Of a stretch of 64,000 bases of DNA, positions 6,592 through 34,935 are shown piece after piece; position 1 is the first letter of the stretch; each line of letters begins with the position of its first letter. The translations under genes and the position numbers were made by a program. The notes beneath the pieces are model-generated. The model saw nothing but the letters and a program-made list of their open reading frames with translations, did no database searches and was not told the origin of the DNA. The stretch comes from Clostridia bacterium (GTDB lineage Bacteria; Bacillota; Clostridia; Oscillospirales; CAG-272), in NCBI GenBank assembly GCA_017462795.1, contig JAFTQL010000041.1:8489-72488 (forward strand), written 5' to 3'.

Positions 6592-8370
6592 TCAAGTGCT
6601 TTGCTTTTCAGACAGCCAATCCTGTAAGGAATCACATCCGCTTGTTCCGACGGTGTACGGCACTACCAAGCGGACGACCCGACCGCCTGCTCCCGCAATG
6701 AACACTTCTTTTGCAAGATTAACCACACATTTATTGTAGGGGGCATCTTTAATGACCTCATAAGCGGTAGTTGCGCATGGCCACAGCACCACATCCGCCG
6801 ACGCATATTCATATACCCTAATAACATTAACATTGGTATCTCTTCCGACAGAGAACCCGTGATGCGCGACCTGTACTATGTCGCTCTTGAGATAGTCACC
6901 GTAAGTATTTGCGAGGACCTCGCACACATAATCGGTGGCATCAGCAAGCATCAAAAACTTTTGACCTCCCAATTCTATATTGAGACACGTAGATGTGGTA
7001 TTTCCTATTGTTAATATCTGCGGCGCGTAGTTTTCGGTGGTAAAAAGCACCTCAAACATCAGGTCGCCGAAGAAATATTTTTGACCCGCGTGAGCCTTTA
7101 TTATGCGTACTCCGTCAAATTTTTTAGCTTGGGCAAGAAGCACATTGCCCGAATCGACATCGCCGGCTTGCAAATTTCCGTCATATCGCGCGGTATCGCT
7201 GGGGAAATTGGCAATAAAGTGCTTCAGCGTCACCTTGTCGGCATATGTGTCCGCAAACACATAGAATGAACCCCAATGGTCAGAATGAGCGTGTGTGATC
7301 ACCCATGCGTCAATAACTATATTGTCAGGATCGGGAGCATATTTTTTCATATAATCATAAATGGCTTTCGCTGTATTCGCGTTCTTATAGCCGCCATCAA
7401 TTATTGTGAATCCCCCTTCAGACGACTGAATTACAAGAGACAGACCTCCTGAATCTCTGGTTTCCTTTGGAGGGTAGGCGAGTCCAAGTATTGAAATGCT
7501 TGGCTCGACAAGCTTCTGACATTCCTCGGTAGGCTCAAGCGTAGGAAGTGTGGAGAGCGGCTCTATGTTTACTTTCACGGTGTTTTCGTATGCGGTATAT
7601 GACGCGTTTACGATGTATTTATCGTTTATATATGTCGCAAATTTGTTTTCCTTTATCTGATTGTCGGTGTAAAACTCAAAGCCCGAGCTTTCAAGCTTGG
7701 AAAGGTAGGAGGTATATGACTCCGCGGTAGTGTCTGATACCACCAGCATATAGTTGTCGTTACCGTTATCATATACACAGTCTTTTTTTCCACCGTCATA
7801 CGTGGGAAGCGCGTTTACAGATTGGACTCCCGTTCCCGTGAGATTTATATCCGCGGAAACGGCAAAGCTTCCTTCTGTTCCGTTTGAAAGCAGCTCCATT
7901 CCAAATGCGGTTATAGCATCGGCAAGCGCGTCAGAGCTGAGCGCGTTTATTACCAGCTTATTATTTACAAATTTTACGATATAATCTCCGTATCCGATCC
8001 CCTCAAGAGCCGTTGCGGATTCTTCGCGTGAGGTAACTCCCACAAGTATCTCTACGGTATCGCCGTTGTTGTTTGCGGACTGCTTATCGGTAGAGATCTT
8101 AGGGGTAGCTCCTGTTGCCGAAGCGAAAAGGTTGGACAGATTGTTTACAAGATCCTTAACTGTTGCCGTTGCTGTTGAGCTTCTGACTATCTTACACTTA
8201 GCAACACCGTCGCTTACAAGCGATATGCTGCCTGAGGTAACGGGTATCTCATCTGTTGTGATCTGATTGGTTTCATTATCACCTGTATCATTGACGCACG
8301 ATGCGAGAGAAGAAATGAGTATAAGAAGCACCAGCGTAAATGCTATGGCTTTATTTAATAAATGTTTCAT
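6592..8370 (-). CDS. lipoprotein with C-terminal metallo-beta-lactamase-fold domain (locus A copy)
   Basis: Lipobox LASC after a hydrophobic N-terminus. VITHAHSDHWG (HxHxDH). AAGGTGG RBS. Paralogous to 23789-25849. Confidence 0.75.
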   Translation of the reverse strand: MKHLLNKAIAFTLVLLILISSLASCVNDTGDNETNQITTDEIPVTSGSISLVSDGVAKCKIVRSSTATATVKDLVNNLSNLFASATGATPKISTDKQSANNNGDTVEILVGVTSREESATALEGIGYGDYIVKFVNNKLVINALSSDALADAITAFGMELLSNGTEGSFAVSADINLTGTGVQSVNALPTYDGGKKDCVYDNGNDNYMLVVSDTTAESYTSYLSKLESSGFEFYTDNQIKENKFATYINDKYIVNASYTAYENTVKVNIEPLSTLPTLEPTEECQKLVEPSISILGLAYPPKETRDSGGLSLVIQSSEGGFTIIDGGYKNANTAKAIYDYMKKYAPDPDNIVIDAWVITHAHSDHWGSFYVFADTYADKVTLKHFIANFPSDTARYDGNLQAGDVDSGNVLLAQAKKFDGVRIIKAHAGQKYFFGDLMFEVLFTTENYAPQILTIGNTTSTCLNIELGGQKFLMLADATDYVCEVLANTYGDYLKSDIVQVAHHGFSVGRDTNVNVIRVYEYASADVVLWPCATTAYEVIKDAPYNKCVVNLAKEVFIAGAGGRVVRLVVPYTVGTSGCDSLQDWLSEKQST

Positions 8371-8404
8371 AATACCACCTTATTCTTATTTTGTATTTTA
8401 TGTA

Positions 8405-9334
8405 TTACATACACCGATCGGAAGCTATCTCGCTTCTGAAATGACAGCCGATATCATAAATCAGCTTTAACCATGGCTCAAGCATTTTTCTGTCGATAAC
8501 CTTAAGTGTTGTCTGCATAAACGTCTCAAAGCAGATATCACCCGAATATCCCACTTTGCGTAGCTCCTCGCAAAAGCTGCTCCACGCGACAGTACCCGTA
8601 TACGGAGCCTTATGCTGATCGGTAAGCCCCGCATTGTCATGAACGTGCAAGACCTTGATCCTTTTACCTAAAACGGGGATATAATTTCTTAAGTCAATAC
8701 GGAGAAGATTGAGATGACCCGTATCAAGACACAAGCCAAAGCATTCCTTTCCCGCAATGGAATTGTAGGTATCTATCATGTCTGCCGCTTCATGAGGGTC
8801 TGAGCAAACGCCCAATGCGATACCGCCCATTGACGCAAACAGATTTTCAAGGCACACGGTAACATCGGTCCCGAGCAACGTGGGGATAAGGCTTGTGTAG
8901 AGCTTATCGTTAAGTTCTCTTATAGATTCCTTTGTGTTGAACTCATCGTTTTTCTCAAGAGAAATGCCGTGAATAACAAGATATTTGCACCCGACCTGAT
9001 GGCAAAACAGGATATTCTTTTTGTATATCTCTATCATGCGGTCAAGCACCCACGGCTTGTCGGGAACGTAAGCGGGGAAGGGAGCGTGCGCCTGACCGAT
9101 GCTCAGCCCGTTTTTTCTTATTTGTGCAAGCTCATCCTCAAATGCGGCAAATATTTCCTCAATGCTCCGATCGTAGAAATTTCCGTCAAGCTCGCCCTTT
9201 CTTATAATAGCGCCGGAAAGACGATTGTTGAGATTCCAGTCAATAGCCTCAAAGCCTGCCTCGGCAAAAAGCCTGTATGTCTCGGCATATCCTATCTCGT
9301 CTGCTGTTCGTCCTGTTTGTATTCCTATTTTCAT
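8405..9334 (-). CDS. sugar phosphate isomerase/epimerase (xylose isomerase-like TIM barrel)
   Basis: FEAIDWN, VIHG, CLEN and LDTGH..HVHDN blocks typical of the AP-endonuclease-2/xylose-isomerase-like fold. The ATG at 9334 has a GGAG upstream. An alternative GTG at 9346 abuts the upstream stop. Confidence 0.75.
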   Translation of the reverse strand: MKIGIQTGRTADEIGYAETYRLFAEAGFEAIDWNLNNRLSGAIIRKGELDGNFYDRSIEEIFAAFEDELAQIRKNGLSIGQAHAPFPAYVPDKPWVLDRMIEIYKKNILFCHQVGCKYLVIHGISLEKNDEFNTKESIRELNDKLYTSLIPTLLGTDVTVCLENLFASMGGIALGVCSDPHEAADMIDTYNSIAGKECFGLCLDTGHLNLLRIDLRNYIPVLGKRIKVLHVHDNAGLTDQHKAPYTGTVAWSSFCEELRKVGYSGDICFETFMQTTLKVIDRKMLEPWLKLIYDIGCHFRSEIASDRCM

Positions 9335-9346
9335 ACTTTTCTCCAC

Positions 9347-10597
9347 TTAATGAATTTGCGCTCCGCCCGCTACAAGTTTTTTTTGAACTGCGGATACATC
9401 CAAGGTGTGAGCAGTCTTGCCGCTATGTATAGCCTCAGCCGCCGCAACTCCCGCGGCTTCTCCGAGACAGGTGCAGATAGGCATTATGCGTACCGCGGAA
9501 TGCGCCTCGTGGGTAGCCGACAAGCATCTTCCCGCGACAAGCATGTTGTCAAGCTCCTTTGGCAGCAAGCTGCGGTAGGGTACTCTGTAATATTCACCGG
9601 GTTTGAAGCGATAAATATACGTTCCCGTACCCTCGGGGTTGTGTATATCAATGTCGTATTTGCCAAGAGCAACCGAATCCTCAAAATCTACACAGTTTAT
9701 AAGCTCGTCTGCCGTCAGCGTGTGAACTCCCCTGAGCTTGCGGCTCTCTCTGACACCTATCTCCGATGCTATGGATATAATGGTGCTGTTTTCAAACGCC
9801 TCGGAATTTGTACGCAGGAAATTATACATTTCAATAACCTGACTGCGCGCCTCCAGCTCCGCTTTGGAAAGCGCCGCGGAATCCGTCGGATCCATTTTTA
9901 TTACGCGAGTGGTATTAAAATGAAGTATACCTTCTCCGAGATTTCCGAATATAAGTATATTCTCTCTGGGATTTTTTATTTTACCCTCTGCCTGATACTG
10001 TTTATATAGCTCCTGGAGTCGCGGCTTATCCGCTTTATATTTTTTCAGATCTACATTTGATAATTTAAAGCAGGTGGTCATAGGCTGACAGAGGTTGTCG
10101 CTCTCGCGCCCAAGCTGAAAGTCACAGCCCGCGAATACCATGAGATCTCCGTCACCGCTCGCGTCTATGAAAAAGTCGGCGCTTATCTCAACAGTGCCAG
10201 ATTTCTGAGCCAGGCGGACTGCCTTTATTCTTCGTCCCTCGGTAACAGCTCCTATGAGCTGTGTGTGAAACAGGATCTCAACGCCTGCCTCTAAAAGCAT
10301 TTGATCTAACATTATTTTAAATATCTCAGGCTGCCAGCCGCGCTCGGATACACCGCCAAGCTCCTCGTGCCTTCTGCACATTTCGGCAAATATTCCGGCA
10401 CTCAATACTCTCTTTGAGCCGTCGGTGTCGGTAAGCGTGTAGCTCATAAAGGGATAAACAGAGCAATTGGACATAGCTCCGCCAAGACAGCCCGCGCGTT
10501 CAACGAGAAGCACACGCAAGCCCTCTCTTGCCGCTGCAACGGCCGCTGCAACGCCCGACAAGCCTCCGCCGACAACCAAAAGATCATAATTCTGCAT
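9347..10597 (-). CDS. FAD-dependent oxidoreductase (locus A copy)
   Basis: N-terminal DLLVVGGGLSGVAAAVAAAREG Rossmann fingerprint. No signal peptide. Paralogous to 20644-21924. Confidence 0.8.
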   Translation of the reverse strand: MQNYDLLVVGGGLSGVAAAVAAAREGLRVLLVERAGCLGGAMSNCSVYPFMSYTLTDTDGSKRVLSAGIFAEMCRRHEELGGVSERGWQPEIFKIMLDQMLLEAGVEILFHTQLIGAVTEGRRIKAVRLAQKSGTVEISADFFIDASGDGDLMVFAGCDFQLGRESDNLCQPMTTCFKLSNVDLKKYKADKPRLQELYKQYQAEGKIKNPRENILIFGNLGEGILHFNTTRVIKMDPTDSAALSKAELEARSQVIEMYNFLRTNSEAFENSTIISIASEIGVRESRKLRGVHTLTADELINCVDFEDSVALGKYDIDIHNPEGTGTYIYRFKPGEYYRVPYRSLLPKELDNMLVAGRCLSATHEAHSAVRIMPICTCLGEAAGVAAAEAIHSGKTAHTLDVSAVQKKLVAGGAQIH

Positions 10598-10623
10598 ATT
10601 TGTATTACCTCACAATTTCTTTT

Positions 10624-10676
10624 AAAAAAAGGCAACGCAGCATTTTACGGAACACTCCCGAATATACCGCATTGCC
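10624..10676 (-). terminator. intrinsic terminator/attenuator downstream of the micro-ORF
   Basis: On the minus strand: GGCAATGCGG ... CTGCGTTGCC (10 bp including 2 G-U pairs) followed by TTTTTTT. Confidence 0.5.
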
Positions 10677-10701
10677 CTATTTTAATTATAAATATCTGTT
10701 A

Positions 10702-10839
10702 TCAGAGCGACAAGGGATCAAGCCTTATTATTCCGTCGGGAAGCTCTTCTCCCTCATAAGCGCCTGCCACTGACATCGTGATAACATCAAGTGCTTCAAG
10801 CACCAATACATTTGCGGTTGCTTTTTCATATTTTTTCAT
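10702..10839 (-). CDS. 45-aa acidic micro-protein (unannotated, locus A copy)
   Basis: ATG at 10839, TGA at 10702-10704, AAGAGG 7 nt upstream. Translation: MKKYEKATANVLVLEALDVITMSVAGAYEGEELPDGIIRLDPLSL. Resembles the 23643-23771 product. Confidence 0.5.
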   Translation of the reverse strand: MKKYEKATANVLVLEALDVITMSVAGAYEGEELPDGIIRLDPLSL

Positions 10840-10850
10840 ATTTATACCTC

Positions 10851-11201
10851 TTATTTCGGTTCTACGAGAGGACCATAGCCAAGGGTTGCATTTGCCGCCT
10901 CTTTTTTCAAATCTCCTGTTTTGGAGTCATCGGGTTGAACAGGGGCGGGATCAGTGTCACTGTCTGAAGGCTCGTCCGTTTCGTTGCTTGTTTCCGTGTT
11001 GGATTCTTCGTTATCATCGGTAGTTGTTATTGTGCTATCACCATCGGAGGTCGTTATTGTGTTATCACCATCGGAGGTCGTTATTACGCTGTCGCTGTCG
11101 GTCTCACTGTCGGAGGGAGCGTTTTTATTACATGCCGCTATTGCCAGCGCAAAACACAAAACGATGGAAACGATTATAAATAGCTTAAATGATCTTTTCA
11201 T
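10851..11201 (-). CDS. small Asp/Thr/Ser-rich lipoprotein with 9-aa tandem repeats
   Basis: Lipobox IAAC. Repeats ITTSDGDNT / ITTSDGDST / ITTTDDNEE. ATGA overlap with the upstream GLUG gene. Confidence 0.65.
   Translation of the reverse strand: MKRSFKLFIIVSIVLCFALAIAACNKNAPSDSETDSDSVITTSDGDNTITTSDGDSTITTTDDNEESNTETSNETDEPSDSDTDPAPVQPDDSKTGDLKKEAANATLGYGPLVEPK
11015..11095. repeat. 27-nt tandem repeat, three copies, in frame within the lipoprotein gene
   Basis: atcggtagttgttattgtgctatcacc / atcggaggtcgttattgtgttatcacc / atcggaggtcgttattacgctgtcgct. Confidence 0.8.
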
Positions 11202-13033
11202 GCGGCATCACCGTTATAGTCAAAGGTAAATCTGGAAATTTTATCATACGCTACCGCATTGTCTTTCACCAGATAGGGAATTACGTCTATGGTAATATCC
11301 GTAGCCGCCTCTGTTTTGGTAGCGCTCTTGTAGCCCTGGATCTCAGCGACGTAAAGATATTTTCCTCCAAGGGTCTCGGCGCTCACATCAAGTCCGTCAG
11401 CCTTAACGGATGTGTAGACAGTATCGGTCTCTCCCGAAACGCTCTTTACCACGGTATTTCCTTCTGCATCCTTATAGGTGAGGAATACAACAAATCCGAG
11501 CTTGTCACCGCTTTGTACCGTTGCTTCGTCAACCGCGGAAACAAGTCTTATGTCCATGCCGTCAGCTTCGCTGTACTTGGTCTGCGCGCGGTTTGCGGCT
11601 ACATTATATATATCCTCTGTCATAGCATTGCCACTCATATCGTAGTAACCTTCGCCGGACATGCAAAGACGTGCTTCTCTTCGTGCATCATAGGAAAACA
11701 GAGGCTGACCCTTGCTGTCGTTTACCGAAGCCTTGTTAATAACAATATTCAGTGATGTTCCATAAAGAGAAAGACTTGTTTTTGCGTTTTTAGTGGGTGC
11801 CAAATATCCTATCAAGGCATCTGCGGTATCGTTAGTAGCGCCTGAATCAACCGAAGTCAGTTCAGCGTTTATCTCACAGTTAACAACAGCAACTGTGTAT
11901 GAAAAATAGTAAAACTGACCGATAATTCCTCCGATTATACGCCCGGAGGATATTGCTCCTGTATAATCACAGTTGTTTAAGGTTTGTACCTTCGCAGTGT
12001 TGTTGGTCTCATTTACGAATCCCATAAAGCCACCGGCAACTGCATTTGTTACGCTTAAATTCAATGTTGCACTACAATCCTCAAAAGTATAATCACTATC
12101 CATGGCTCCGACAAAACCGCCGGAAAATATAGCCTTTACAGCCGATTTATCACTGTTGCCGCTTATTGCACCGGATATCTCACAGCCTTTTGCGTTTATT
12201 GCGGCGGTGGAATATCCGACCAATCCGGCAGTGTAAGAATTCTTTGCGGGGTTACCGTCATAGGCTACAGTGGCTTCAAAATTTGTAAGCTTGAAGTTTT
12301 CAATATTAAGAGTACCTACCGTTGTGCCCTTTACGTTCTGGAATACAGCGCCTGCAACTCCGTTAAGAGCTGTTACTTTCGTACCAGCTTTATTTATGGT
12401 TGCCTTAAAGCCGTTTACGGTAATGTTCTTTACCGTTGCTACTGTTTCAGAAATGTTATATCCGATAACGCCGCCAATCATACTTGCATCCGTAGAGGTA
12501 GTGGTAGCGGTAAGTGTATTTACAGTAATATCCTGAACAGTTGTATCCGTAGCGTATGCGGAAACTGCACCCATATAAATTGCCGCCGACTGCTCCTGAG
12601 CAGTGCTGAGCGTTACCTTATCCAAGGTGAGATTTTTAACTGTCGCGCCGTTACACTTAGCAAACAGACCCATGTAGGTTGCCTCGGTGGATACGGTAAG
12701 ATTGGAAACAGTTTTTCCGTTTCCGTCAAATGTTCCGTCAAAGGAATATTCGCCGTTAAGGCCGCCAACGGGTGTCCAAGTTACGCCTGCCATATCAACA
12801 GACGCGCCGAGTGTTACGGTTTTGCCGTCAAAGCTGTCCTGTGCAATGTCAGTTGCCGTTCCGCTGACAATCGCCGAAAAGCCAAGCAGATCGCCTGCGT
12901 CATTGAGTGTGAAGCTCTGTGAGGTCGTGTCATACCAGGAATAATCAGCCGCAGTTTCCGCAGCGTATATTGTGGGGACAAGCACGAAAATCATTGCAAA
13001 CGCGATCAGTGCCGAAAATAATCTTTTTTTCAT
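11198..13033 (-). CDS. secreted GLUG-motif beta-helix repeat protein (locus A copy)
   Basis: Signal peptide ending IYA-AE. FDGTFDGNGKTVSNL entry motif. Repeated GG(V/F/I)(I/V/M)G segments. C-terminal domain shared with the 21983-23626 product. Confidence 0.7.
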   Translation of the reverse strand: MKKRLFSALIAFAMIFVLVPTIYAAETAADYSWYDTTSQSFTLNDAGDLLGFSAIVSGTATDIAQDSFDGKTVTLGASVDMAGVTWTPVGGLNGEYSFDGTFDGNGKTVSNLTVSTEATYMGLFAKCNGATVKNLTLDKVTLSTAQEQSAAIYMGAVSAYATDTTVQDITVNTLTATTTSTDASMIGGVIGYNISETVATVKNITVNGFKATINKAGTKVTALNGVAGAVFQNVKGTTVGTLNIENFKLTNFEATVAYDGNPAKNSYTAGLVGYSTAAINAKGCEISGAISGNSDKSAVKAIFSGGFVGAMDSDYTFEDCSATLNLSVTNAVAGGFMGFVNETNNTAKVQTLNNCDYTGAISSGRIIGGIIGQFYYFSYTVAVVNCEINAELTSVDSGATNDTADALIGYLAPTKNAKTSLSLYGTSLNIVINKASVNDSKGQPLFSYDARREARLCMSGEGYYDMSGNAMTEDIYNVAANRAQTKYSEADGMDIRLVSAVDEATVQSGDKLGFVVFLTYKDAEGNTVVKSVSGETDTVYTSVKADGLDVSAETLGGKYLYVAEIQGYKSATKTEAATDITIDVIPYLVKDNAVAYDKISRFTFDYNGDAA

Positions 13034-13054
13034 TATAATATACCTCTTATAAAT

Positions 13055-14515
13055 TTAGTCTAATGCTGCGTATTGTGAATAGATTCCGTCAAGTATGCCG
13101 TTCATCGACGGAGCAAACTTTGCGAAATGGGATGCCGCGTCAGTGCCGCCATATGTATGCATGCAGAACATCTCCGTCTGATACTTATTTACAGTATAGT
13201 TGTGAGCGTATGTAACGTCCAGCATTATGCTCCTGTTAATAAGGTCGATGATCTCCATGTTTTCGGGAACCTGAACGTATTTTGTTTTCAAGGTATCCTC
13301 ATAGTACTCGGGTACAACATTGAGATAGCTCAGACAACCGTGCGCGTTGATTATATCAACGACCATATCGGCGTCGGAGGTGATCGGAATTACAAACATA
13401 CCTGCCGATGTTCCCATCTGAACGTAGTAATCGGTCTGTTCCTCATTATATTTGGGTTGAGGAAGTATAACGTAATCATCGCACAGGGTAGCAAGAGTTT
13501 CCGCGGTCTCAATTGTTTCATTAAGTATGATCGCGCGGTCAGCGGCAAAGATAGACGTTAAAGGAGAGATGTCGTTTGCCTTAAGGATATATGTGTCCTT
13601 GGGGTTGGTAACCAGTGTCTTGAATTTATCGACCGCGTCATAGTAACGCTGAGTCGCACCTTTATACACAAGCTTTCCTTCGCTTGATCTGTCTATCAGA
13701 TTAAGATCGAACGCGGTCTGGAATCCTCTCATGGTAACGTCCGATGATATAAAGCCATAGAAATCGACTTCAGTCATCTGTTCATCGCTGTTTATGTCCT
13801 CACCCTGTTCTCTTGTCAGCTTAAGGAAGTTTTCGAGTGTCCATTTGCCGCTGAGAACAAGCTCGACTGGATCGGTAAGCTTTCGCTGCTCAATAAGCGC
13901 CGTATTTGCGTACATAACGTATGTTCCCTTGTATACGGATAACATTGATGAACCGGTAACAGCATATAGCCTATCCGCTATCTGAAGGTTATTGTAAATA
14001 TCCGCCGACCACCAGGGGTTGCTGAAATCCATGCCCTCAAGAGAACCGTAATTGTAGAACTGACCTTCAATGGTCAGAGGCATTATAATTGATGTCATTC
14101 CGTTTACGAGCTGATATGCATCATCTTCTGCCATTATACTGTCACGAACAAGCGAAATAAACGTAGACTTGTTGGTCCAGTTGCCGGGTTCAGCCATATA
14201 GACAAGGTCAACGCCATAGGTGCTCTCAATTTGTATGTCGCGCTTATAGACCGCATCGTTGATCTTATCTCCGGTCAAGCCCTCCGCAAATTCATACGAT
14301 TGTTCCTTGGGCTGTAGAATAGTGAATGTGGCTCCGCCGTAGTTGTTTTTTGGAAGCTCTGCCCACCAATCGGTTCCATCAGCATCCGTGGAGACTGTAT
14401 TATTGTTGGAAGTATCCACGGGTGGAGTGTCGTCATTTGAACAAGCTACCAGTGTTCCCAGCAGAGTTAAGCAAGCAAGTCCTCCGCATAGGAATCTTGT
14501 GATTTTTTTGCGCAT
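13055..14515 (-). CDS. extracellular solute-binding-protein-like lipoprotein (orphan, locus A copy)
   Basis: Start set at the ATG at 14515, with GGAGG 8 nt upstream. Lipobox LVAC. About 490 aa, SBP family-1-like. Paralogous to 28388-29857. Confidence 0.75.
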   Translation of the reverse strand: MRKKITRFLCGGLACLTLLGTLVACSNDDTPPVDTSNNNTVSTDADGTDWWAELPKNNYGGATFTILQPKEQSYEFAEGLTGDKINDAVYKRDIQIESTYGVDLVYMAEPGNWTNKSTFISLVRDSIMAEDDAYQLVNGMTSIIMPLTIEGQFYNYGSLEGMDFSNPWWSADIYNNLQIADRLYAVTGSSMLSVYKGTYVMYANTALIEQRKLTDPVELVLSGKWTLENFLKLTREQGEDINSDEQMTEVDFYGFISSDVTMRGFQTAFDLNLIDRSSEGKLVYKGATQRYYDAVDKFKTLVTNPKDTYILKANDISPLTSIFAADRAIILNETIETAETLATLCDDYVILPQPKYNEEQTDYYVQMGTSAGMFVIPITSDADMVVDIINAHGCLSYLNVVPEYYEDTLKTKYVQVPENMEIIDLINRSIMLDVTYAHNYTVNKYQTEMFCMHTYGGTDAASHFAKFAPSMNGILDGIYSQYAALD

Positions 14516-14737
14516 AATTTTTTCCTCCATTAATAAATTTATTGCGGCAATTTGTGAAGATTGATGAATAAATCGCTTTTCTTCACACAAATATTATCGC
14601 ACATATTCCAAGCGATTTATATATAAAAAATTAGCATATTTTTGTAAAAATCGAGCATAATTGATATGGTGTTATTGATTTATCATCTGCTATGTGTTAT
14701 AATTACAGCACAAATTCGAGTGAAGGGGGATAAATAA

Positions 14738-21924: not shown

Positions 21925-21982
21925 CGTAATTAATATTGTAGGTATATAAAGAATATATATCAAAAAATTCAGGAGGTTTTTT

Positions 21983-23626
21983 ATGAAAAAAGCACTATCT
22001 TATCTTTTGGCGACTATCATGATCATCTCGGCCTTCGCAGTCATGCCTGCCACTGCGGCGGGTACAGCTCCCACAGCACCTGATAAAGAGGTGGTTGTCG
22101 GATATGACACGGGCAAGGTCCTTGAAGTAAGCGGACTTAAAGAGAAGGTGACCGCAACCACCCCCGGTACAACACCCATTCCTACTGTAATGGACTATTC
22201 CTTTACTTGCACGGAAGGCGGGAAATATACTATCAGCTCTCCCGAACAGCTTGGTATGTTCAGCAGAATGAGCAGAGTAACATCGAGTGATGGCAAGCAG
22301 AAGTGGACTTTTGAGGGCTGTACAGTTTATATCACTTGTGATATAGATATGTCCAAGCTTGAGGATAAAGGCGACGGAACATATTCTTATAACTTTTCGG
22401 GAATAGGAGAAGGCAACGGCTCGTCAGCAAAGCAGCTGTTCTTTGCGGGAACATTTGACGGTCAGGGCTATGTCATTGATAACTGGGAGATAGCCAACAG
22501 TTATCAGGGCTGCGGTTTCTTTAACTGTGTTGTGGATGCTACAATTAAGAATGTAGTTCTCGGCTCGGGTAATAAGGTTACCGCAAGCAATAATCAGATC
22601 GGTGGTCTTGTTGGATATGCACGTAAATCGAATACGGCATATGGTGTATCTATTGAGAATTGTCTTGTAATGTCAACTGTCGTAACAAACGGTAACAAAA
22701 ACCAGATGGGCGGTATCATAGGCGCTATGGCAGGGCCTGTAGATATCACCAACGTAACATTCGGCGGAAGCATAACGGGTGATAACCGTGTCGGCGGTAT
22801 AGTCGGAGCGGCAGGTCAGGTCACTACACTTACAAATTGCCTGATGAGCGGTACTGTTGTGGCAAATAATGCTTCTTCCACGTCATCGGATAAATTAACC
22901 ATAGGCGCGGGCGCTATTATAGGCTATCTGAATAATTCGGCGACCGTAAATAACTGTGTAAATGCGGGTACTGTAACATCCGCTAACGTGTCGGGTGTTA
23001 TTGCGGGAAGCATAAATGAATCGTCTGCCGCCAAGCTCACGGTAAACAGCGCCGTAAACTACAGCACATCGGTGACAGCCGCTTACGGTAAGCTCGGCGC
23101 AAACGCAACAGCCAATATAAGCGGATATACCGATCTTTCCACGGCTGACATCGGAAACGCCATCCGTGTAAATCCCGATCTTCCCATGGGACTTCGTTAT
23201 ACATCTGTTATTACCAAGGCGCAGATAGATGCGGCTAAGGCGCTTTCCAAGGACGGCACTGTCTCCTTCGGTACTATCATAGCTCCCAAGGATTACTTTG
23301 GCACAAACGAGGCATATACCGCCACAAACGCGGGTACATATCTGGATATTCCGGCGACCTCTATAGGCATGACCGAGAACGCTGACGGCAGTGTTACGCT
23401 CAAGGCGGCAATAACCGAGATCAAGGACGGCAATCTCAAGAGAGACTTCGTATTTGTTCCTTATATCTCTTATGAGGATGCCGACGGCAATACGGTATAC
23501 AGCTACGTATACACAACGGGCATCAAGAGCGCGAGAGCCGTTGCGGATCTGGCGCTTGCCGATACATCCGCAAGCTATTCCGACACCACGATCGCCCTTA
23601 TCAAGGAAAGATACGTTAAAGACTGA
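21983..23626 (+). CDS. secreted GLUG-motif beta-helix repeat protein (locus B copy 1)
   Basis: Signal peptide (..ATA-AG). FAGTFDGQGYVIDNW. IGGLVGY, MGGIIGA and VGGIVGA repeats. AGGAGG RBS. Confidence 0.7.
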   Translation: MKKALSYLLATIMIISAFAVMPATAAGTAPTAPDKEVVVGYDTGKVLEVSGLKEKVTATTPGTTPIPTVMDYSFTCTEGGKYTISSPEQLGMFSRMSRVTSSDGKQKWTFEGCTVYITCDIDMSKLEDKGDGTYSYNFSGIGEGNGSSAKQLFFAGTFDGQGYVIDNWEIANSYQGCGFFNCVVDATIKNVVLGSGNKVTASNNQIGGLVGYARKSNTAYGVSIENCLVMSTVVTNGNKNQMGGIIGAMAGPVDITNVTFGGSITGDNRVGGIVGAAGQVTTLTNCLMSGTVVANNASSTSSDKLTIGAGAIIGYLNNSATVNNCVNAGTVTSANVSGVIAGSINESSAAKLTVNSAVNYSTSVTAAYGKLGANATANISGYTDLSTADIGNAIRVNPDLPMGLRYTSVITKAQIDAAKALSKDGTVSFGTIIAPKDYFGTNEAYTATNAGTYLDIPATSIGMTENADGSVTLKAAITEIKDGNLKRDFVFVPYISYEDADGNTVYSYVYTTGIKSARAVADLALADTSASYSDTTIALIKERYVKD

Positions 23627-23642
23627 AAAGGAGGCAGAAAAA

Positions 23643-23771
23643 ATGAAGAAATTATATTCAACACCCGAATTTAAGGTTATATGTCTCAACACCGAGGACA
23701 TCATGTCGGCAAGCAGTACGCTTGAAGAGGATGATATCGGAGCGGATATCTTTGACGCTCTTTCTATCTGA
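23643..23771 (+). CDS. 42-aa acidic micro-protein (unannotated as such, locus B copy)
   Basis: AAGGAGG 8 nt upstream of the ATG at 23643. Translation: MKKLYSTPEFKVICLNTEDIMSASSTLEEDDIGADIFDALSI. It is the 3' part of track ORF 23454-23771, which otherwise overlaps the GLUG gene. Confidence 0.55.
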   Translation: MKKLYSTPEFKVICLNTEDIMSASSTLEEDDIGADIFDALSI

Positions 23772-23788
23772 TCCCCAAAGGTGAATAT

Positions 23789-25849
23789 ATGAAAACAGCG
23801 AAAAGCAGAATACTTAAATGCTTGTCCATTTTGCTGTGTGTTCTCATGATCGCTTCTCTCATCACCGCCTGCGGGGGTGATGAGAGTGGGGAGAACACCG
23901 GGAGCGGTGACAGCGGAACGGTAAGCGGTGAGCGTACAGTCGCCGTCATTATCCCCGCAAGCGCGTCGGACATAATAAATTCCGTGGCGGGCAAGGTAAA
24001 GACGCTTTGTGAGGACGCGGGATACACGGTGACTATGTATAATGAGTCCCAAACGGTAGCTAACGAGAGCTATCGCGTATATGTGGGTAACGTAAATACG
24101 GAGACATCGATCGCTCATCTTTCTGAGCTTGGCTCTTGCGGTTATGGGGTAAAGGCTGACAGAACGGGGGTATATCTGTCAGCCACCGCCGAGACACTTC
24201 TTGACCTCGCTTACGATATGCTTGAAAAGCAGGGGCTGCCCGCCGATTCTCTTACGGAGACGGTTAAGAGCGAAAACGCGGTATTCAGCGAATTTACTTA
24301 CATTATAAAGGATGCGGCAATGAGCATGACTGTCAGCGGAGATACATCTGTCAGCGGCATCTCGGGCGCGCTCAAGGAGCTTACCATGGGGCTGGCGGCA
24401 ACGCTGAAAAAGACTGTCACGTCGGAGAACGGTAACAACGGCGATCTCGTGCTCATGTCCACAAGCGCGGCAGTGGTAAAGGGAATAACCGACGACGCGA
24501 GATATAATGCCTACGGTATGTCCGTAAAGGACGGAAAAATATATATCTACGCAAACGATCAGGCGGGCTACAGCGCGGCAGTGACACGTTTCCTTGCCAT
24601 TGTCAAGGACATATCGGATTACAAGGACAGTCGCGCGTTGTTCTATCCTACGGAGCTAAGACTGTTGGAGGAAATAAACTCTGCAATACCTGCTTTACCG
24701 TTATATCCCGGTTCCACGGTGTATGATGAGGCTGTTGCGGAATCCTATACTATAAGCGCCGAGTCATCGGGCAAGCAGGCGTTTTACGATTACTGTACGG
24801 CTCTTGAGAATGACGGCTACAGGCTTGCCGAAGACCGAGCAAGAGACTGTACATACGAAAACAGTCCCTACACCTTTAAGAATATATATCGTACCTACAT
24901 AAACAGCCGATATATGGTGCATATGTACTTTATCGACTACACCAAGACGGTGAAGATAATAGGCGCTCCCATTTCGGAGTATGAGGCCGCGCAGCAATTG
25001 GTTGCAACCGAGGGGGACGGTGATACTGTATTCTCCATGCTGAAGATCAGCGGCGGACTCTGCATGGCTATAAAGCTTTCGGACGGCAGATTTATTGTCA
25101 TCGACAGCGGTAACTGGAGTCTGTCCGATACAAGGGCGGCTGATATAGTCAAGCTCCACGACTTCCTCGCGGAGAATTCTCCTGACGGCAAGATACACAT
25201 AGCCGCATGGATATTCACTCATGTTCATGTGGATCACGTAAATGCCGCATGGAAGTTTGAGGACATGTACGGTGATGAGGTTATCATAGAGCGTTATATG
25301 CACAACTTTGTTGACTATGACTTTCTGCTATCCGTTCCCGATACAGACCTTAGCAAGGCGACATATGATATAGTCTATCCCCGAACGCTTGAGATGCTTT
25401 CGAGATACGATAATGTTATTATGCACACAGGACAGGTCTACAATATCGGAAATATCACCATCGACGTTTTGTATACACATGAGGACTTCTATCCTCAGCC
25501 GTTGAAGATAGTAAATAACTCCTCAACCGTAATGCAGATAACGGTCGAGGGCAATACCTTCCTTATCGCGGGCGACCTTGAGGAGGACGGACAGCAGGTG
25601 GCGGTAAGCATGAATGGATACGCGTTAGCGTCCGATTTCGTTCAGATGACACACCACAGCTATAACGGACTTCTTGAATATTACAAATACGCGTCAAGCA
25701 AGGAGTATACTGTGGTACTGCTTCCCAACGATAATATGAAGCAGCCTACGTCTACCGTCGCCTGCAATCAGTGGCTGTTGAGCAAGGCAAATGAGTTTTA
25801 CAGCACATATACGGGGCATCATCATTTCACCATGCCACACGTAAAGTGA
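23789..25849 (+). CDS. lipoprotein with C-terminal metallo-beta-lactamase-fold domain (locus B copy)
   Basis: Lipobox ITAC. WIFTHVHVDHVNA (HxHxDH). Later QMTHHSYNG. Confidence 0.75.
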   Translation: MKTAKSRILKCLSILLCVLMIASLITACGGDESGENTGSGDSGTVSGERTVAVIIPASASDIINSVAGKVKTLCEDAGYTVTMYNESQTVANESYRVYVGNVNTETSIAHLSELGSCGYGVKADRTGVYLSATAETLLDLAYDMLEKQGLPADSLTETVKSENAVFSEFTYIIKDAAMSMTVSGDTSVSGISGALKELTMGLAATLKKTVTSENGNNGDLVLMSTSAAVVKGITDDARYNAYGMSVKDGKIYIYANDQAGYSAAVTRFLAIVKDISDYKDSRALFYPTELRLLEEINSAIPALPLYPGSTVYDEAVAESYTISAESSGKQAFYDYCTALENDGYRLAEDRARDCTYENSPYTFKNIYRTYINSRYMVHMYFIDYTKTVKIIGAPISEYEAAQQLVATEGDGDTVFSMLKISGGLCMAIKLSDGRFIVIDSGNWSLSDTRAADIVKLHDFLAENSPDGKIHIAAWIFTHVHVDHVNAAWKFEDMYGDEVIIERYMHNFVDYDFLLSVPDTDLSKATYDIVYPRTLEMLSRYDNVIMHTGQVYNIGNITIDVLYTHEDFYPQPLKIVNNSSTVMQITVEGNTFLIAGDLEEDGQQVAVSMNGYALASDFVQMTHHSYNGLLEYYKYASSKEYTVVLLPNDNMKQPTSTVACNQWLLSKANEFYSTYTGHHHFTMPHVK

Positions 25850-25901
25850 ATCTCGCCGCAAGAGGCGTTGATCAAATAAAACACACAGAAAGGATTTTAT
25901 C

Positions 25902-27338
25902 ATGAAAAAGTTTATTTCCCTTATTACTGTACTTACACTGTTGGCAGCAGCCATTGCGCTTACGCTCTCCGCGTTCGCGGGACCCGAGAACATTGTGGGA
26001 TACAGCGCTCAGCGTGTTGAGAAGAAGGATCTGACAAATGTGACCGACATCATGGATTACGCCACCAAGTCCAATGAGACCGAATACAAGATATCGGATA
26101 TTGACGGTTGGCACGAGCTTGAGTATTGGGTAAACGACCAGAACAAGACCTTCAAGGGCGTTACCGTATATCTTGCTGACAATATCTATCCCGAGACTAA
26201 CGAGATAATTTACGGTCTTGGTAAGACGACCTCAAAACCCACCACTCACTATTATTTCGCGGGTACGTTTGACGGACAGGGCTATACTATTGAAAATGTT
26301 ACCGTTCAGATGAGAACTACCTCAAACGGCGGTGGTATCATCGGATTTGTAAAGGGTGCTACCGTAAAGAACCTTATCGTTGGCGAGAATGTTAAAATGA
26401 ACTTCAAGAATTCGCAGTCCGCGGCAATAGTCGGCCGTGTAGACGACGCCGATCCCGTGGTCATCGACAACTGCTGGAACAAAGCAAGCGTTACTTTTGA
26501 TTCTACCATGAACGGAGGTATCGTCGGTTGTACCACAAACGCTGACGGTAATGTCACTGTTTCCAACTGTACAAACTCCGGTAAGATAACCTCTCAGGAA
26601 AGAGTGGGCGGTATCGTTGGACGTTCCGCTTCCAACATAACCATCAAGAACTGTCTCAACACGGGCGAGGTTATCGCCACCGATGTCAAGACGGTAGAGC
26701 AGTGGAAGGAAAGTAACAATCAGACTACATCCGCAGGTGAAACAGTGGCGCGAAAGATGGGTGTTGCCGGTATCCTTGCGGAGACCACAAAGAGTGCGGC
26801 GGAGACTGTAGTTGAGGGTTGTATCAACACAGGTAAGATCACAGGTAGCAAGGTGATTGCGGGAATCGTAGGCTTCAACCCTGTTGGCGGCGGCGCAACG
26901 GTTAAGAATTGCGCGAACTACGGTGTTCTCAATCTTCTCCAGACAAGCGGATACAAGGGACAGATCATCGGACATTCCAATGAACCGGCCAATATTCAGT
27001 CCGACAACTCCATGCTTGAGGGTCAGACATGGACACCCGCAGAGACCGATCCTCCCGCCGATCCCATTCAGCCCAACAGACCCGAGGCGGATACTGATCC
27101 CATAACTCCCGATACCGATCCTGTCGTTCCGGACACTGATCCTGTTCCCGAGGATACCAAGGGATCGGATAACAGCAACGGTACATCTGCGTCCGACAAC
27201 GCGGGCAGTGAAGAGGAGACAACAGGCTCTGATGACGGAGGATGTGGCTCCGCTCTCGCAGGCTCCGCTCTTGCGATAGTAGGTGTCATTTCCCTCGCGA
27301 CAGTTCTTCTGAAGAGAAGAAAAGACGAAATTAACTGA
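25902..27338 (+). CDS. GLUG-motif beta-helix protein with Pro/Asp-rich stalk and C-terminal membrane-anchor/sorting-like tail (locus B copy 2)
   Basis: Signal peptide. FAGTFDGQGYTIENV. GGIIGF, GGIVGC, GGIVGR and AGIVGF repeats. Tail is GGCGSALAGSALAIVGVISLATVLLKRRKDEIN. Confidence 0.7.
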   Translation: MKKFISLITVLTLLAAAIALTLSAFAGPENIVGYSAQRVEKKDLTNVTDIMDYATKSNETEYKISDIDGWHELEYWVNDQNKTFKGVTVYLADNIYPETNEIIYGLGKTTSKPTTHYYFAGTFDGQGYTIENVTVQMRTTSNGGGIIGFVKGATVKNLIVGENVKMNFKNSQSAAIVGRVDDADPVVIDNCWNKASVTFDSTMNGGIVGCTTNADGNVTVSNCTNSGKITSQERVGGIVGRSASNITIKNCLNTGEVIATDVKTVEQWKESNNQTTSAGETVARKMGVAGILAETTKSAAETVVEGCINTGKITGSKVIAGIVGFNPVGGGATVKNCANYGVLNLLQTSGYKGQIIGHSNEPANIQSDNSMLEGQTWTPAETDPPADPIQPNRPEADTDPITPDTDPVVPDTDPVPEDTKGSDNSNGTSASDNAGSEEETTGSDDGGCGSALAGSALAIVGVISLATVLLKRRKDEIN

Positions 27339-27349
27339 ATCAAAACCAA

Positions 27350-27384
27350 AATATCCTTACGGAGCGAAGCTCCGTAAGGATATT
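27350..27384. terminator. bidirectional terminator hairpin between convergent genes
   Basis: Perfect 16-bp stem aatatccttacggagc / gctccgtaaggatatt with a 3-nt loop. Confidence 0.65.
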
Positions 27385-27387
27385 GGA

Positions 27388-28245
27388 TCAAGAATATTTT
27401 CTTCTGTATTCGGTCGGCGAGATGCCGTATTTCTGCCTGAACTTCTGTGAGAAGTGGGAGGAATTATTGAAGGACAGAGCAAAGGCAATGTCCGTTATGC
27501 TGTAGTCTGTGCCGCAGATGAGATTTTCCGCCGCCTCAAGCTTGGTATCAAGAATAAAGCGGTGCAGGGAAACGCCGGTTGCTTTTTTCATTATCCTCGA
27601 TATATAGTTGGGATGATAGGAAAAGGTCCGCGCGATGGATGCGGCATCTATATTGGCATTTACGTTTTTGTGGATGTAGTCGATGATCTTCTGGGCGACA
27701 TTTGAATGATCACAGCCTGCTTGCGGATTGCTCTCTCGGGCAATGCACAAGAGCATCTGATGGATGTATACGTTGATGAACTCATCGCAAAGAGGATTCA
27801 TCTGCTCTATCTCGCGCAGTATTTTGCGGCAGATATGAAATGCCGCCTCTGAAACGATGTGCTGCGGAGAGTTGAAAACAGGATGATCGGTGAAGACATA
27901 CTTATCAATTATCTTGTATTGCGTGAACAGATATGGCTGGATCAGTGCCTGGGTGTCAAAATCCGCATTCTGACGCGTCATATCAAAAAATATATTGAAA
28001 ATGTAGATCTCATCGGTGAGATGCTCGGAGGAGTATTTGACACCGGGCGGAAGAAAGACTATGCTTCCCGCATTGCAATCAAAGCATGTTGAGTCTACGG
28101 TGACCTTGCACGAACCGTTTATGACACATATAAATCTGTAGGTCTGAGCAAATTTGTTGTACGTAGCCTTGTTCTTCTTAGTGTTCAGCCACGGAAAATA
28201 GTTAAAAACGCGAGGAGAAATGTGATTGATATCAAGGGTATTCAT
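27388..28245 (-). CDS. AraC-family transcriptional regulator (locus B)
   Basis: C-terminal HTH ...SITDIAFALSFNNSSHFSQKFRQKYGISPTEYR. Divergent from the SBP gene at 28388. Confidence 0.85.
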   Translation of the reverse strand: MNTLDINHISPRVFNYFPWLNTKKNKATYNKFAQTYRFICVINGSCKVTVDSTCFDCNAGSIVFLPPGVKYSSEHLTDEIYIFNIFFDMTRQNADFDTQALIQPYLFTQYKIIDKYVFTDHPVFNSPQHIVSEAAFHICRKILREIEQMNPLCDEFINVYIHQMLLCIARESNPQAGCDHSNVAQKIIDYIHKNVNANIDAASIARTFSYHPNYISRIMKKATGVSLHRFILDTKLEAAENLICGTDYSITDIAFALSFNNSSHFSQKFRQKYGISPTEYRRKYS

Positions 28246-28387
28246 TACGTGCCTCCTATGCTTGGTTTTACTTATATTAGTTTATCACAAAAGCGAAAAA
28301 TTATCAATCCCATAATTGTAATTTGGTTAAAAATACAACAAACAAAAAATGATATGGATAAAACACAACAACACGAAAGGAAAGTTT

Positions 28388-29857
28388 ATGAAAATAACGG
28401 TAAGAATACTTTCATTGCTCCTGTCGCTGCTCGTGCTTGCGGGAGTACTCATATCCTGCGGTGAGGATGACGGTGACTCCAAGGATACGGGCAATTCCGT
28501 ATCTACGGGCGACCTGACAGCTGAGCTTGACGTTGGCAGAGAGGACAACGGCGGAAAGGATATAAGAATACTGTACAATAAAAATACCGCGACTTACGAT
28601 GTTTTCAAAGAACTCAGCACAGACAGTGTAGGCTCGGCAATGTTCAGCCGCGACATGACGGTTGAGGATCATCTGGGCATAAATCTTGATTATTACATTG
28701 AGGATGGTTCATGGAACCAGAGGCAGGAGTTTAACCAGAAGATACAGGCAAGCGCGCAGGCAGGGGCTGAATACGATTATGACATAGTGTTCGCCCATCC
28801 CTCTTGCTCGCTTGTAAACAACGCGTCCATGAACTGCTTTAAGAACATGTACGATTATTCCGACATCATTTCATTTGACAAGGTCTGGTGGCTTACGGGC
28901 ATGGACGATTACGCTATCAACAATACTCTGTTCTGCGTATTCGGCGATGCCACTCTCAGTACCTACAACCAGATGGCGGTGGTATATTTCAATCAGCAGA
29001 TACTTGCTAACGAGGGACTTACCTCTCCCTATGAATTGGTCAGAAATAACCAGTGGACATATGAGAGATTGTTCGCTGACGCGCTGAAGATCAGCGGCGA
29101 CCTTGACGGTGACGGACAGATAAGCTATCTGACGGATATAGTCGGATATGTTCAGGCGTCTACTCCCGCGCGCGGATGGCTGTCATCCCTTGAGCTTGAC
29201 CTTGTGCAGAAGAACTCCGACGGAACACTTACCGTTGGTGAATCTGCTCCGGAAAAGCTCATTGATGTGTACGATAAGCTTTACGCATTCTTTTCCAACA
29301 ACAATAATATTGTAAGCGGCAGCGGAGATGAGCTTCAAGCCACCTTTACCGACGGCAGATGCCTTTATCTGCTGAGCACTCTTGCCGATATAGATTACTT
29401 CTCCTTCGGAGCTATGGAGGATGACTGGGGAATAATTCCCATGCCAAAGTACAGCACCGAGCAAAATGACTATATCACACCCGTGGGTACGTCCGTGGCT
29501 ATGATGGCTATCATGAACAATGTGTCTGATGGCGAGCTTTGCGCAAAGGTGCTTGAGTGCATGTCGTATTTTGCCAATAAGATGGTCGTTGACGAATACT
29601 ATGTAAAGACACTCGGCGAGCGCCGCGCGAGGGACGAGAATGTGGCGGGAATGCTTGACATTATCCGCAAAGGCTCAAAGCTTACCTTTGTAGCCGTATA
29701 TCAGGATTCATTTACCACACCCATATACAATCTTCTCCAGATGGACGAGAAGTGGAGAAACGAGAAGGTGGGGGCAAGTGTTGCTTCTTATTGGAGGAGC
29801 AATTACAGAAGCTGGCGCGGAAATCTTACCGAGCTTCAGCAGCTTGGCAAGGGTTAA
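28388..29857 (+). CDS. extracellular solute-binding-protein-like lipoprotein (orphan, locus B copy)
   Basis: Start set at the ATG at 28388 (MKITVRILS...). Lipobox LISC. Paralogous to 13055-14515. Confidence 0.75.
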   Translation: MKITVRILSLLLSLLVLAGVLISCGEDDGDSKDTGNSVSTGDLTAELDVGREDNGGKDIRILYNKNTATYDVFKELSTDSVGSAMFSRDMTVEDHLGINLDYYIEDGSWNQRQEFNQKIQASAQAGAEYDYDIVFAHPSCSLVNNASMNCFKNMYDYSDIISFDKVWWLTGMDDYAINNTLFCVFGDATLSTYNQMAVVYFNQQILANEGLTSPYELVRNNQWTYERLFADALKISGDLDGDGQISYLTDIVGYVQASTPARGWLSSLELDLVQKNSDGTLTVGESAPEKLIDVYDKLYAFFSNNNNIVSGSGDELQATFTDGRCLYLLSTLADIDYFSFGAMEDDWGIIPMPKYSTEQNDYITPVGTSVAMMAIMNNVSDGELCAKVLECMSYFANKMVVDEYYVKTLGERRARDENVAGMLDIIRKGSKLTFVAVYQDSFTTPIYNLLQMDEKWRNEKVGASVASYWRSNYRSWRGNLTELQQLGKG

Positions 29858-34911: not shown

Positions 34912-34935
34912 ATTTTTTAAAATCATTGAAATCTA

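Follow-up and report, generated by a model that had tools for sequence, protein, structure and literature searches.

Two gene blocks in a 64,000-nucleotide stretch of a Clostridia bacterium genome (Oscillospirales, CAG-272; contig JAFTQL010000041.1, forward-strand positions 8,489 to 72,488; hereafter the window, whose own numbering is used throughout) encode related sets of proteins. Locus A (4857-15604, mainly on the minus strand) and locus B (20644-37362) have in common an AraC-type regulator, a ~500-residue lipoprotein related to solute-binding proteins (SBP-like), one or more GLUG-like secreted proteins, an open reading frame (ORF) of 42-45 amino acids (the micropeptide), a PF12831 flavoprotein, and a Lactamase_B lipoprotein of the metallo-β-lactamase (MBL) fold. 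The six-part set is a mosaic, a toolkit of linked sub-modules rather than an obligate six-part machine, in which the SBP-like and MBL lipoproteins, often with AraC, form a tight pair shared by 10 or more species of uncultured gut Clostridia. Capture and breakdown of host or dietary polymers is the most likely role of the set or of its parts; that the two blocks belong, as members that diverged long ago, to a lineage-specific group of AraC-controlled loci resembling polysaccharide utilization loci (PULs), serving surface polymer capture and degradation in a Gram-positive gut anaerobe, we regard as an even prospect. A preliminary description of this DNA had supposed that no system of such composition is described, and none was found in the literature and curated family libraries searched, including searches with the peptide motif, PF12831, and GLUG combinations.

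The counterparts in the two blocks are homologous by BLASTP: the flavoproteins share 43% identity over 405 residues (359 bits), the MBL lipoproteins 29% over 381 residues (139 bits), the SBP-like lipoproteins 27% over 426 residues (140 bits), the AraC regulators 28.5% over 291 residues (121 bits), and the GLUG-like proteins 28-32% (45-95 bits). Identities of 27-43% point to an ancient duplication. The locus A proteins have far closer relatives in other genomes than their locus B partners, with best non-self matches of 48% (MBL) and 62% (SBP-like), which likewise argues for an ancient duplication and not a recent tandem copy. The preliminary description had proposed the ORFs, their motifs, the presence of all six component types in both blocks, the visible paralogy of the pairs, and a differing gene order that spoke against recent tandem duplication; the ORFs and motifs are present where it placed them, domain searches and the ORF list recover the six types, and the pairwise alignments together with the unlike gene order of A and B bear out the rest. 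A small lipoprotein had also been counted among the exported parts. This holds for locus A, which encodes an acidic 116-residue lipoprotein with no family match at threshold in Pfam or NCBIfam, but not for locus B, which has none; counterparts of 74-87 residues occur in three loci from other genomes (L005, L007, and L085; L numbers denote such comparison loci throughout). Lipoboxes are seen in this protein, in both SBP-like proteins, and in both MBL proteins. The small acidic lipoproteins and many micropeptides have similar acidic, Trp-containing C-termini (..GNWTKFY, ..ENWTPNL, ..DSWFAQQE, ..EEWEW; window 10851-11201 and 10702-10839, L007:9496-9732, L085:15747-16010), which hints at a common docking motif.

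Recurrence of the parts was assessed in an MBL-anchored sample of 77 loci, collected with a narrow MBL alignment from species-representative genomes (gut metagenome-assembled genomes of ruminants, humans, and horse) and annotated by simple gene calling. Of the 77 species loci, 18 have an SBP-like gene no more than 10 kb from the MBL gene, whereas no SBP-like gene was seen in the 120 control loci (Fisher p = 1e-8); these counts are inflated by shared ancestry. In 10 species (L035, L048, L053, L054, L063, L065, L068, L070, L078, and L083) the SBP-like gene is immediately 5′ of the MBL gene and co-oriented with it, the two being no more than about 40 nt apart, and the same adjacency occurs in L002 and L085. 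AraC regulators of the same subfamily accompany 9 of the 18 loci with an SBP-like gene versus 2 of the 59 without (p = 1.3e-5), and micropeptides are found in 6/18 versus 0/59 (p = 8e-5). The flavoprotein is an additional member in L007, L054, L063, and L090, the order in L054 and L063 being SBP-MBL-x-FAD-GH78. Near-complete sets, duplicated within one locus, are present in L007 and L085. In the latter, a human-gut contig, a GLUG-like gene (706), a peptide gene, an SBP-like gene, and an MBL gene are followed by two AraC genes pointing outward, beyond which a second set comprises a gene of 593, a peptide gene, an SBP-like gene, an MBL gene, a gene of 586, an acidic lipoprotein, and three TIM barrels. 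The other neighbors in related loci vary, but are genes for carbohydrate-active or other sugar enzymes, namely GH35, GH38-like, GH78, GH32, GH36, BNR_2, Gfo/Idh/MocA, and AP_endonuc_2 proteins. The functional linkage that had been proposed for the six components is thus sustained by co-location above control and by the duplicated sets, but not as one obligate unit.

The genes and elements of the two loci are arranged as follows:

4857-6473, minus strand: GH20 family hexosaminidase-like enzyme without a signal peptide (Pfam Glyco_H_20C_C, 1.8e-56; Glyco_hydro_20, 3.4e-9)
6592-8370, minus strand: locus A MBL-fold lipoprotein (Lactamase_B, 3.2e-9; lipobox LASC)
8405-9346, minus strand: xylose-isomerase-like TIM-barrel enzyme (AP_endonuc_2, 5.6e-23)
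9347-10597, minus strand: locus A PF12831 oxidoreductase dependent on flavin adenine dinucleotide (FAD), cytoplasmic (FAD_oxidored, 1.1e-118, full length)
10622-10685, minus strand: intrinsic-terminator-like hairpin followed by U7, between the peptide A and flavoprotein genes
10702-10839, minus strand: micropeptide A, 45 residues, MKKYEKATANVLVLEALDVITMSVAGAYEGEELPDGIIRLDPLSL (annotated as hypothetical protein IJY08_04365)
10851-11201, minus strand: small acidic Thr/Asp/Ser-rich lipoprotein, 116 residues (lipobox IAAC)
11198-13033, minus strand: locus A GLUG-like secreted repeat protein with a C-terminal ~160-residue domain (signal peptide)
13055-14515, minus strand: locus A SBP-like lipoprotein (lipobox LVAC)
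14738-15604, plus strand: locus A AraC-family regulator, divergent (HTH_18, 8.7e-17; weak AraC_binding match)
20644-21924, plus strand: locus B PF12831 FAD-dependent oxidoreductase (FAD_oxidored, 1.2e-117)
21983-23626, plus strand: locus B GLUG-like secreted protein 1 (GLUG1), with the shared C-terminal domain (signal peptide, repeat units)
23643-23771, plus strand: micropeptide B, 42 residues, MKKLYSTPEFKVICLNTEDIMSASSTLEEDDIGADIFDALSI (directly 3′ of GLUG1)
23789-25849, plus strand: locus B MBL-fold lipoprotein (Lactamase_B, 9.3e-7; lipobox ITAC)
25902-27338, plus strand: locus B GLUG-like protein 2 (GLUG2), with a Pro/Thr/Asp linker and a C-terminal membrane anchor (hydrophobic C-terminal segment by eye)
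27350-27384: 16-bp hairpin between the convergent GLUG2 and AraC genes
27388-28245, minus strand: locus B AraC-family regulator (HTH_18, 6.3e-20; HTH_AraC, 1.1e-17)
28349-29857, plus strand: locus B SBP-like lipoprotein (lipobox LISC; homology to the locus A copy)
29962-32904, plus strand: 980-residue cytoplasmic protein with a C-terminal SGNH esterase domain (Lipase_GDSL_2, 5.7e-8; DUF3604, 7.8e-4)
32938-34911, plus strand: GH94-superfamily enzyme, glycan phosphorylase type (Glyco_hydro_94, 1.8e-64)
34984-37362, plus strand: GH2 glycosidase (Glyco_hydro_2_C, 1.1e-24; DUF4982; other GH2 domains)

The hairpin at 10622-10685 (RNA fold −32.3 kcal/mol, z −4.4, equaled by 0/200 shuffles) sits between the SBP-GLUG-lipoprotein-peptide and the FAD-TIM-MBL genes, so that locus A comprises two or more transcription units. 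The start of the TIM-barrel gene abuts the stop of the flavoprotein gene, and the GH20 gene has a promoter-like site of its own (6548-6520, 11 of 12 positions matched). In locus B, the FAD-GLUG1-peptide-MBL-GLUG2 run terminates at the 27350-27384 hairpin, on which the AraC gene also converges and which is likely a bidirectional terminator; the AraC gene of locus A diverges from its block; the SBP-like, 980-residue SGNH, GH94-like, and GH2 genes form a further unit of locus B. A reading in terms of RNA elements was dropped, as the 64-kb window contains no Rfam family and no tRNA. The enzymes are GH20, the flavoprotein, and the TIM barrel in locus A, and the flavoprotein, SGNH, GH94-like, and GH2 proteins in locus B. 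The glycan enzymes expected alongside the set are therefore present as GH20, GH2, GH94-like, and SGNH proteins, but the PHP assignment in the 980-residue protein was not confirmed by Pfam, its N-terminus appearing PHP-like by eye only. Both flavoproteins match PF12831 over their full length (E = 1e-118 in A and 1e-117 in B); the family has no solved close relative, and matches in the PDB are confined to the Rossmann segment.

The locus A MBL lipoprotein comprises two N-terminal α/β domains followed by a C-terminal di-metal hydrolase domain, in which His360/His362/Asp364/His365, His427, Asp477, and His503/His504 (HxHxDH plus the downstream ligands) are invariant in 57 homologs; the locus B protein aligns with the family, metal ligands included. 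Foldseek searches with the AlphaFold2 model (predicted local distance difference test, pLDDT, 92) returned as best match the MBL domain of ComEC (9ic4, E = 8.8e-12), with Pce next (2bib, 1.8e-11; 1wra, 1.3e-10), at TM scores of 0.61-0.74, normalized to the target, and identities of only 12%-16%. A profile of the family run against the PDB likewise matched ComEC (2.3e-9) and Pce (5e-7). The C-terminal domain is thus predicted, from model and profile, to be an MBL hydrolase with a complete di-metal site, belonging to the ComEC/Pce (phosphodiesterase/nuclease) branch. Pce/CbpE and the ComEC MBL domain are similar to the window proteins in their MBL sub-fold, full di-metal ligand set, and extracytoplasmic location. 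In contrast, the window proteins are lipid anchored, being neither choline binding nor part of a channel, have two N-terminal domains lacking detectable relatives, and belong to a family whose genes lie in tandem arrays. For the N-terminal half, no relative was found among PDB sequences, and the Foldseek list consists mostly of MBL-domain matches; an extra copy of the first N-terminal α/β domain is present in the locus B protein and in some relatives (P0053).

All 63 clusters of MBL homologs are from uncultured Clostridia. Mapping with hidden Markov models (HMMs) onto the 77 loci shows 2-7 copies of the gene in tandem, unaccompanied by any other part of the module, as the usual arrangement; these arrays contain no peptide genes, and the idea that the acidic peptide might confer "immunity" to a nuclease-like MBL enzyme was dropped on this ground. 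Arrays of 6-7 copies (L014, L074, L020/L021, L030, and L080), several of them in a conserved housekeeping context (alaS, dnaX, and ybaB), show how strikingly one surface enzyme has expanded in this lineage. MBL arrays repeatedly have GDPD genes as neighbors (L001, L003, L014, and L083), the GDPD gene families being present in 6 and in 5 loci, and a GDPD gene also lies between the two window loci. A role in anti-phage defense was likewise dropped: PADLOC gives partial, generic MBL-fold matches only, and nothing for the other parts.

The SBP label given to the ~500-residue lipoproteins finds no direct Pfam or NCBIfam match in the window proteins, but a profile of 20 family members matches 6rjy (AbnE, an arabino-oligosaccharide-binding protein) at 2.1e-7 over ~210 residues. 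Two relatives carry PF01547, and two are named by JGI as sugar or glycerol-3-phosphate binding components. On the basis of this profile match and of the Pfam domain and names of the relatives, the SBP-like protein is predicted to be a diverged CUT1-type sugar-binding lipoprotein. A jackhmmer search with permease seeds identified no CUT1 permease beside the SBP-like genes of 90 loci or in the whole window, and no ABC permease is present in the annotated part of the window, which extends to about 49 kb. Throughout, the family is "orphan", i.e. without a neighboring permease. Three SBP-anchored contexts comprise a solitary gene (L088), an AraC gene with four tandem SBP-like copies, BNR_2, and a PnuC-like transporter (L089), and an IclR gene with two SBP-like copies and the flavoprotein (L090). 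The L089 context (4421-14157), on a biogas-reactor contig, also has a TIM-barrel gene; its BNR_2 protein is sialidase-like and its PnuC-like protein is the product of an NMN_transporter gene. It is possible that this PnuC-like protein is a non-ABC uptake partner of the SBP-like family.

The assignment of the secreted proteins to the GLUG type is less direct. Matches to Pfam GLUG (PF07581) are below the cut-off of 20.5 bits, with E = 0.037 (14.9 bits) for GLUG2 and E = 2.6 for the locus A protein, and a Peptidase_M26_N match to the locus A protein (E = 1e-4) is also under its cut-off. The label is upheld, as a probable one, by homology to Pfam-positive GLUG proteins (3e-9 for locus A, 2.8e-12 for GLUG2; BLASTP range 3e-9 to 3e-12), among them a large secreted cluster whose L199 and L178 members score 9.4e-22 and 1e-8 against Pfam GLUG, and (I/V)GG(I/L)(V/I)G...NC units are repeated in GLUG1. 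The β-helix that had been proposed comes from a low-confidence model: AlphaFold2 with three sequences gave an overall pLDDT of 52 for GLUG1, with residues 80-345 at pLDDT 70-90 and a β-helix-like strand pattern. Foldseek found no significant match to this model, the weak ones being β-helix adhesins and IgA1 protease.

Both micropeptide genes have strong Shine-Dalgarno sequences (GAGGT 7 nt before the ATG of peptide A, GGAGG 8 nt before that of peptide B), and the ATG of peptide B lies 16 nt past the GLUG1 stop codon. An origin of the peptide by read-through or as a frameshift extension of the GLUG gene was rejected because the reading frames are not the same and both peptide genes come with a Shine-Dalgarno sequence. 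One family profile, run exhaustively against 1.84 billion proteins, matches peptide A itself (P0126) at E = 1.9e-8 and a one-residue variant of peptide B (P0120) at E = 7.4e-8. It yields at least 2,483 clusters when grouped at 50% identity, nearly all of them 30-60 residues long. The consensus MKKEYxxPExEIxxFExEDIITTSG is followed by a variable tail, the leader being conserved and the tail hypervariable; peptide A has a leader-like N-terminus and an acidic tail without cysteine. The family has no Pfam or NCBIfam model. The paeninodin lasso model (NF033524) aligns with canonical members over the first 11-12 leader positions only (E = 0.0015-0.02; 14-18 bits, cut-off 27); there is no NF033524 match for the window peptides, and lasso enzymes were not seen. 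A double-glycine leader was dismissed by inspection. The micropeptide had been taken as a part of the module; instead, it belongs to a very large family with leaders of the type found in ribosomally synthesized and post-translationally modified peptides (RiPPs), habitually encoded 3′ of GLUG surface-protein genes and not specific to the module.

Relatives of the peptides in loci containing MBL or SBP-like genes number 13-14. In 16 of 19 cases the peptide ATG is 13-22 nt past the stop codon of an upstream signal-peptide protein, and most such proteins share the ~160-residue C-terminal domain with its GASIR...P.G(I/L)RF motif and contain no Pfam domain. A scan of metagenomic DNA with a hand-made pattern gave 120 peptide loci with 138 peptides. 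Among 100 upstream neighbors, 57 belong to one cluster of secreted proteins of 950-1,870 residues with GLUG, F5/8 type C, and laminin-G domains, and 21 are radical SAM enzymes. One of the latter loci, L153, is a textbook RiPP cluster with a radical SAM enzyme, three Cys-rich precursors carrying the same leader, PqqD (6e-13), a peptidase, and an ABC exporter; no curated model matched its precursor family. In this locus (L153:20-4758) the radical SAM gene is apparently frameshifted, the precursor leader reads MEKYxKAQMEVIEFEAEDVITTSG, and the peptidase is S24-like. PqqD homologs lie 3′ of the peptide in five loci. Cysteine is present in 16/20 tails beside radical SAM genes (median 24 residues) versus 1/44 after surface proteins (median 12 residues), and the window pair belongs to the cysteine-free, surface-protein-linked class. 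An "LP" motif is frequent in GLUG-linked tails (NDLPPMG, NPELPFVP, and LDLPEID in peptides of L091-L210), and peptide A has EELPDG. A canonical GLUG and peptide locus (L178:1669-10444) also contains GH114, an NTP_transf_5 nucleotidyltransferase, TetR, a 178-residue signal-peptide protein, and an ABC exporter, which suggests that the peptide may be exported in such loci. At the window loci the micropeptide could be a partner, a signal, or a regulator.

Elsewhere in the window, genes for a DeoR regulator, a class II aldolase, an Fe-ADH_2 protein (glycerol-1-phosphate dehydrogenase-like), and GDPD lie between the loci (15712-19321), as does one for a YitT protein. Three adjoining genes at 624-4019 encode an acyltransferase, a GT8 protein, and an unusual GT8-acyltransferase fusion of 594 residues, beside SGNH and GH20 genes. 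Capsule/exopolysaccharide chain-length machinery (a CpsB-like phosphatase, a ParA/tyrosine-kinase-like ATPase, and a Wzz-domain protein) is encoded on the minus strand at 39272-41624.

In the PUL-like explanation, the GLUG proteins and the SBP-like lipoprotein would hold a glycan or phosphoglycan at the surface, and the MBL lipoprotein would cut phosphodiester-linked substituents or linkages, an activity suggested by its ComEC/Pce fold and the recurrent GDPD neighbors. Fragments would enter via a transporter encoded elsewhere, the cytoplasmic GH20, GH2, GH94-like, and SGNH enzymes and the flavoprotein/TIM-barrel pair would complete degradation, and AraC would be induced by a degradation product. 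As with paralogous PULs, the differing enzyme sets of A and B may reflect different substrates. The known systems nearest to the set in function are Gram-positive PULs, with which it shares an AraC-type regulator, a lipoprotein derived from sugar SBPs, several clustered glycoside hydrolases, and paralogous loci with different enzyme sets. Of the features by which PULs are recognized, the window has carbohydrate-active enzymes (GH20, GH2, and GH94 superfamily) and a regulator (AraC in both loci), but a complete transport system of SBP plus permease was not found in the annotated window or the 90 loci; no permease or ATPase genes lie in or near any locus, and the MBL lipoproteins, GLUG proteins, and leader-type micropeptide are non-standard parts. 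The Sus-like sets of Bacteroidota (SusD/E/F plus a surface enzyme) also combine a lipid-anchored binder with an enzyme in many substrate-specific paralogous loci. The likeness is a functional analogy: there is no homology to the window set, which has no TonB-dependent transporter and belongs to a Gram-positive envelope.

Several observations weigh against the PUL-like explanation. The import step is unsupported, because no transporter is encoded in the loci, in the annotated window (~49 kb), or beside the SBP-like genes of the 90 loci. We infer the MBL activity from the fold only, and likewise infer the substrate class, import, and induction. A catabolic model does not account for the presence of the peptide. 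The 120 peptide loci gave 0 matches to the SBP-like and FAD HMMs and matched the MBL HMM in 2 loci; GLUG plus peptide is therefore an independent and far more widespread pair. Arrays of up to 7 MBL copies without other parts indicate an enzyme that is not tied to the rest, and the loci all come from related uncultured metagenome-assembled genomes, so that the co-occurrence counts are raised by common descent.

Tentatively, and with much less confidence than we place in the PUL-like explanation, the set might instead represent a new surface apparatus, in which leader-type micropeptides with a non-RiPP or trans-matured role are obligate partners of the GLUG proteins and are wired to a transporter-independent, SBP-derived lipoprotein and an MBL phosphodiesterase under AraC control. 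If so, an apparatus centered on GLUG and peptide would be a new kind of sensing, adhesion, or degradation unit and not a variant PUL.

It is doubtful that there is no single system at all, and that the blocks are a chance union of conserved pairs (SBP-like with MBL and AraC, GLUG with peptide, flavoprotein with TIM barrel) drawn from lineage-expanded families, A and B being alike since the same expanded families keep landing together. Such a union would accommodate the MBL arrays that stand alone, the SBP-like genes that occur alone, in tandem, or with FAD only, the GLUG and peptide pairs without other parts, the unlike gene order of A and B, and the terminator that divides locus A. However, it does not readily explain why the full or near-full set recurs in distant genomes (L007, L085, and L063), again duplicated, why peptides occur in MBL-anchored loci only together with an SBP-like gene (the 6/18 versus 0/59 given above), or why intergenic gaps are tight.

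A peptide signaling or bacteriocin-like module is improbable. In such a module a RiPP-type precursor, matured elsewhere and exported, would be bound by the SBP-like protein or by the GLUG C-terminal domain, with AraC providing the output, in the manner of orphan-SBP pheromone receptors. The PrgZ/TraC systems of enterococcal plasmids (with PrgX and small peptides) likewise have a binding lipoprotein that lacks a permease of its own and is encoded beside genes for a small peptide and a regulator. PrgZ is an Opp-type peptide binder, whereas the window family is related to sugar-binding and not to peptide-binding proteins, its regulator is AraC, and genes for peptide export or processing are lacking. 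The conserved leader and hypervariable tail, the frequent position of the peptide gene directly 5′ of the SBP-like gene (L049, L063, L068, and L085), the absence of permeases beside the SBP-like genes, the ABC exporters and TetR of canonical GLUG and peptide loci (L178), and the same leader in the Cys-rich precursors of radical-SAM/PqqD/peptidase/ABC-exporter clusters (L153 and others) are all consistent with signaling. The radical-SAM/PqqD RiPP clusters of Clostridia (sactipeptide/ranthipeptide type) indeed have the N-terminal 25 residues of their precursors in common with the micropeptides, but tblastn with L153, L103, and L178 proteins found no radical SAM, PqqD, peptidase, or exporter gene in the 64-kb window, the window tails, like GLUG-linked tails generally, are without cysteine, and the peptide gene is 3′ of a GLUG protein; the loci are, moreover, full of glycan enzymes. 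Least probable is a scavenger of phosphodiester polymers (teichoic acids, extracellular DNA, or glycerophospho-glycans) rather than neutral glycans, with the MBL lipoproteins as primary depolymerases: the ComEC nuclease domain and Pce, a phosphorylcholine esterase acting on teichoic acid, are the closest relatives of these lipoproteins in structure, GDPD genes lie next to MBL arrays (L001 and L003) and between the window loci, and L085 has an IU_nuc_hydro gene, but the low identity to ComEC and Pce, companion enzymes that are mostly glycosidases, and the failure to see phosphate-regulon or nucleoside-uptake genes argue against it.

The source organisms are abundant uncultured gut Clostridia of ruminants and humans, and nearly every exported part of the set is "dark", having no Pfam or NCBIfam name. 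If the PUL-like explanation is correct, the loci would define a family of sugar-SBP-derived lipoproteins acting without an ABC permease of their own, a greatly expanded group of MBL-fold hydrolases at the cell surface, encoded by up to 7 genes in tandem and possibly acting on polymers with phosphodiester linkages, and a very large unnamed peptide family linking RiPP-type leaders to GLUG surface proteins. Together these would fill gaps in how Gram-positive gut bacteria recognize and process host or dietary polymers.

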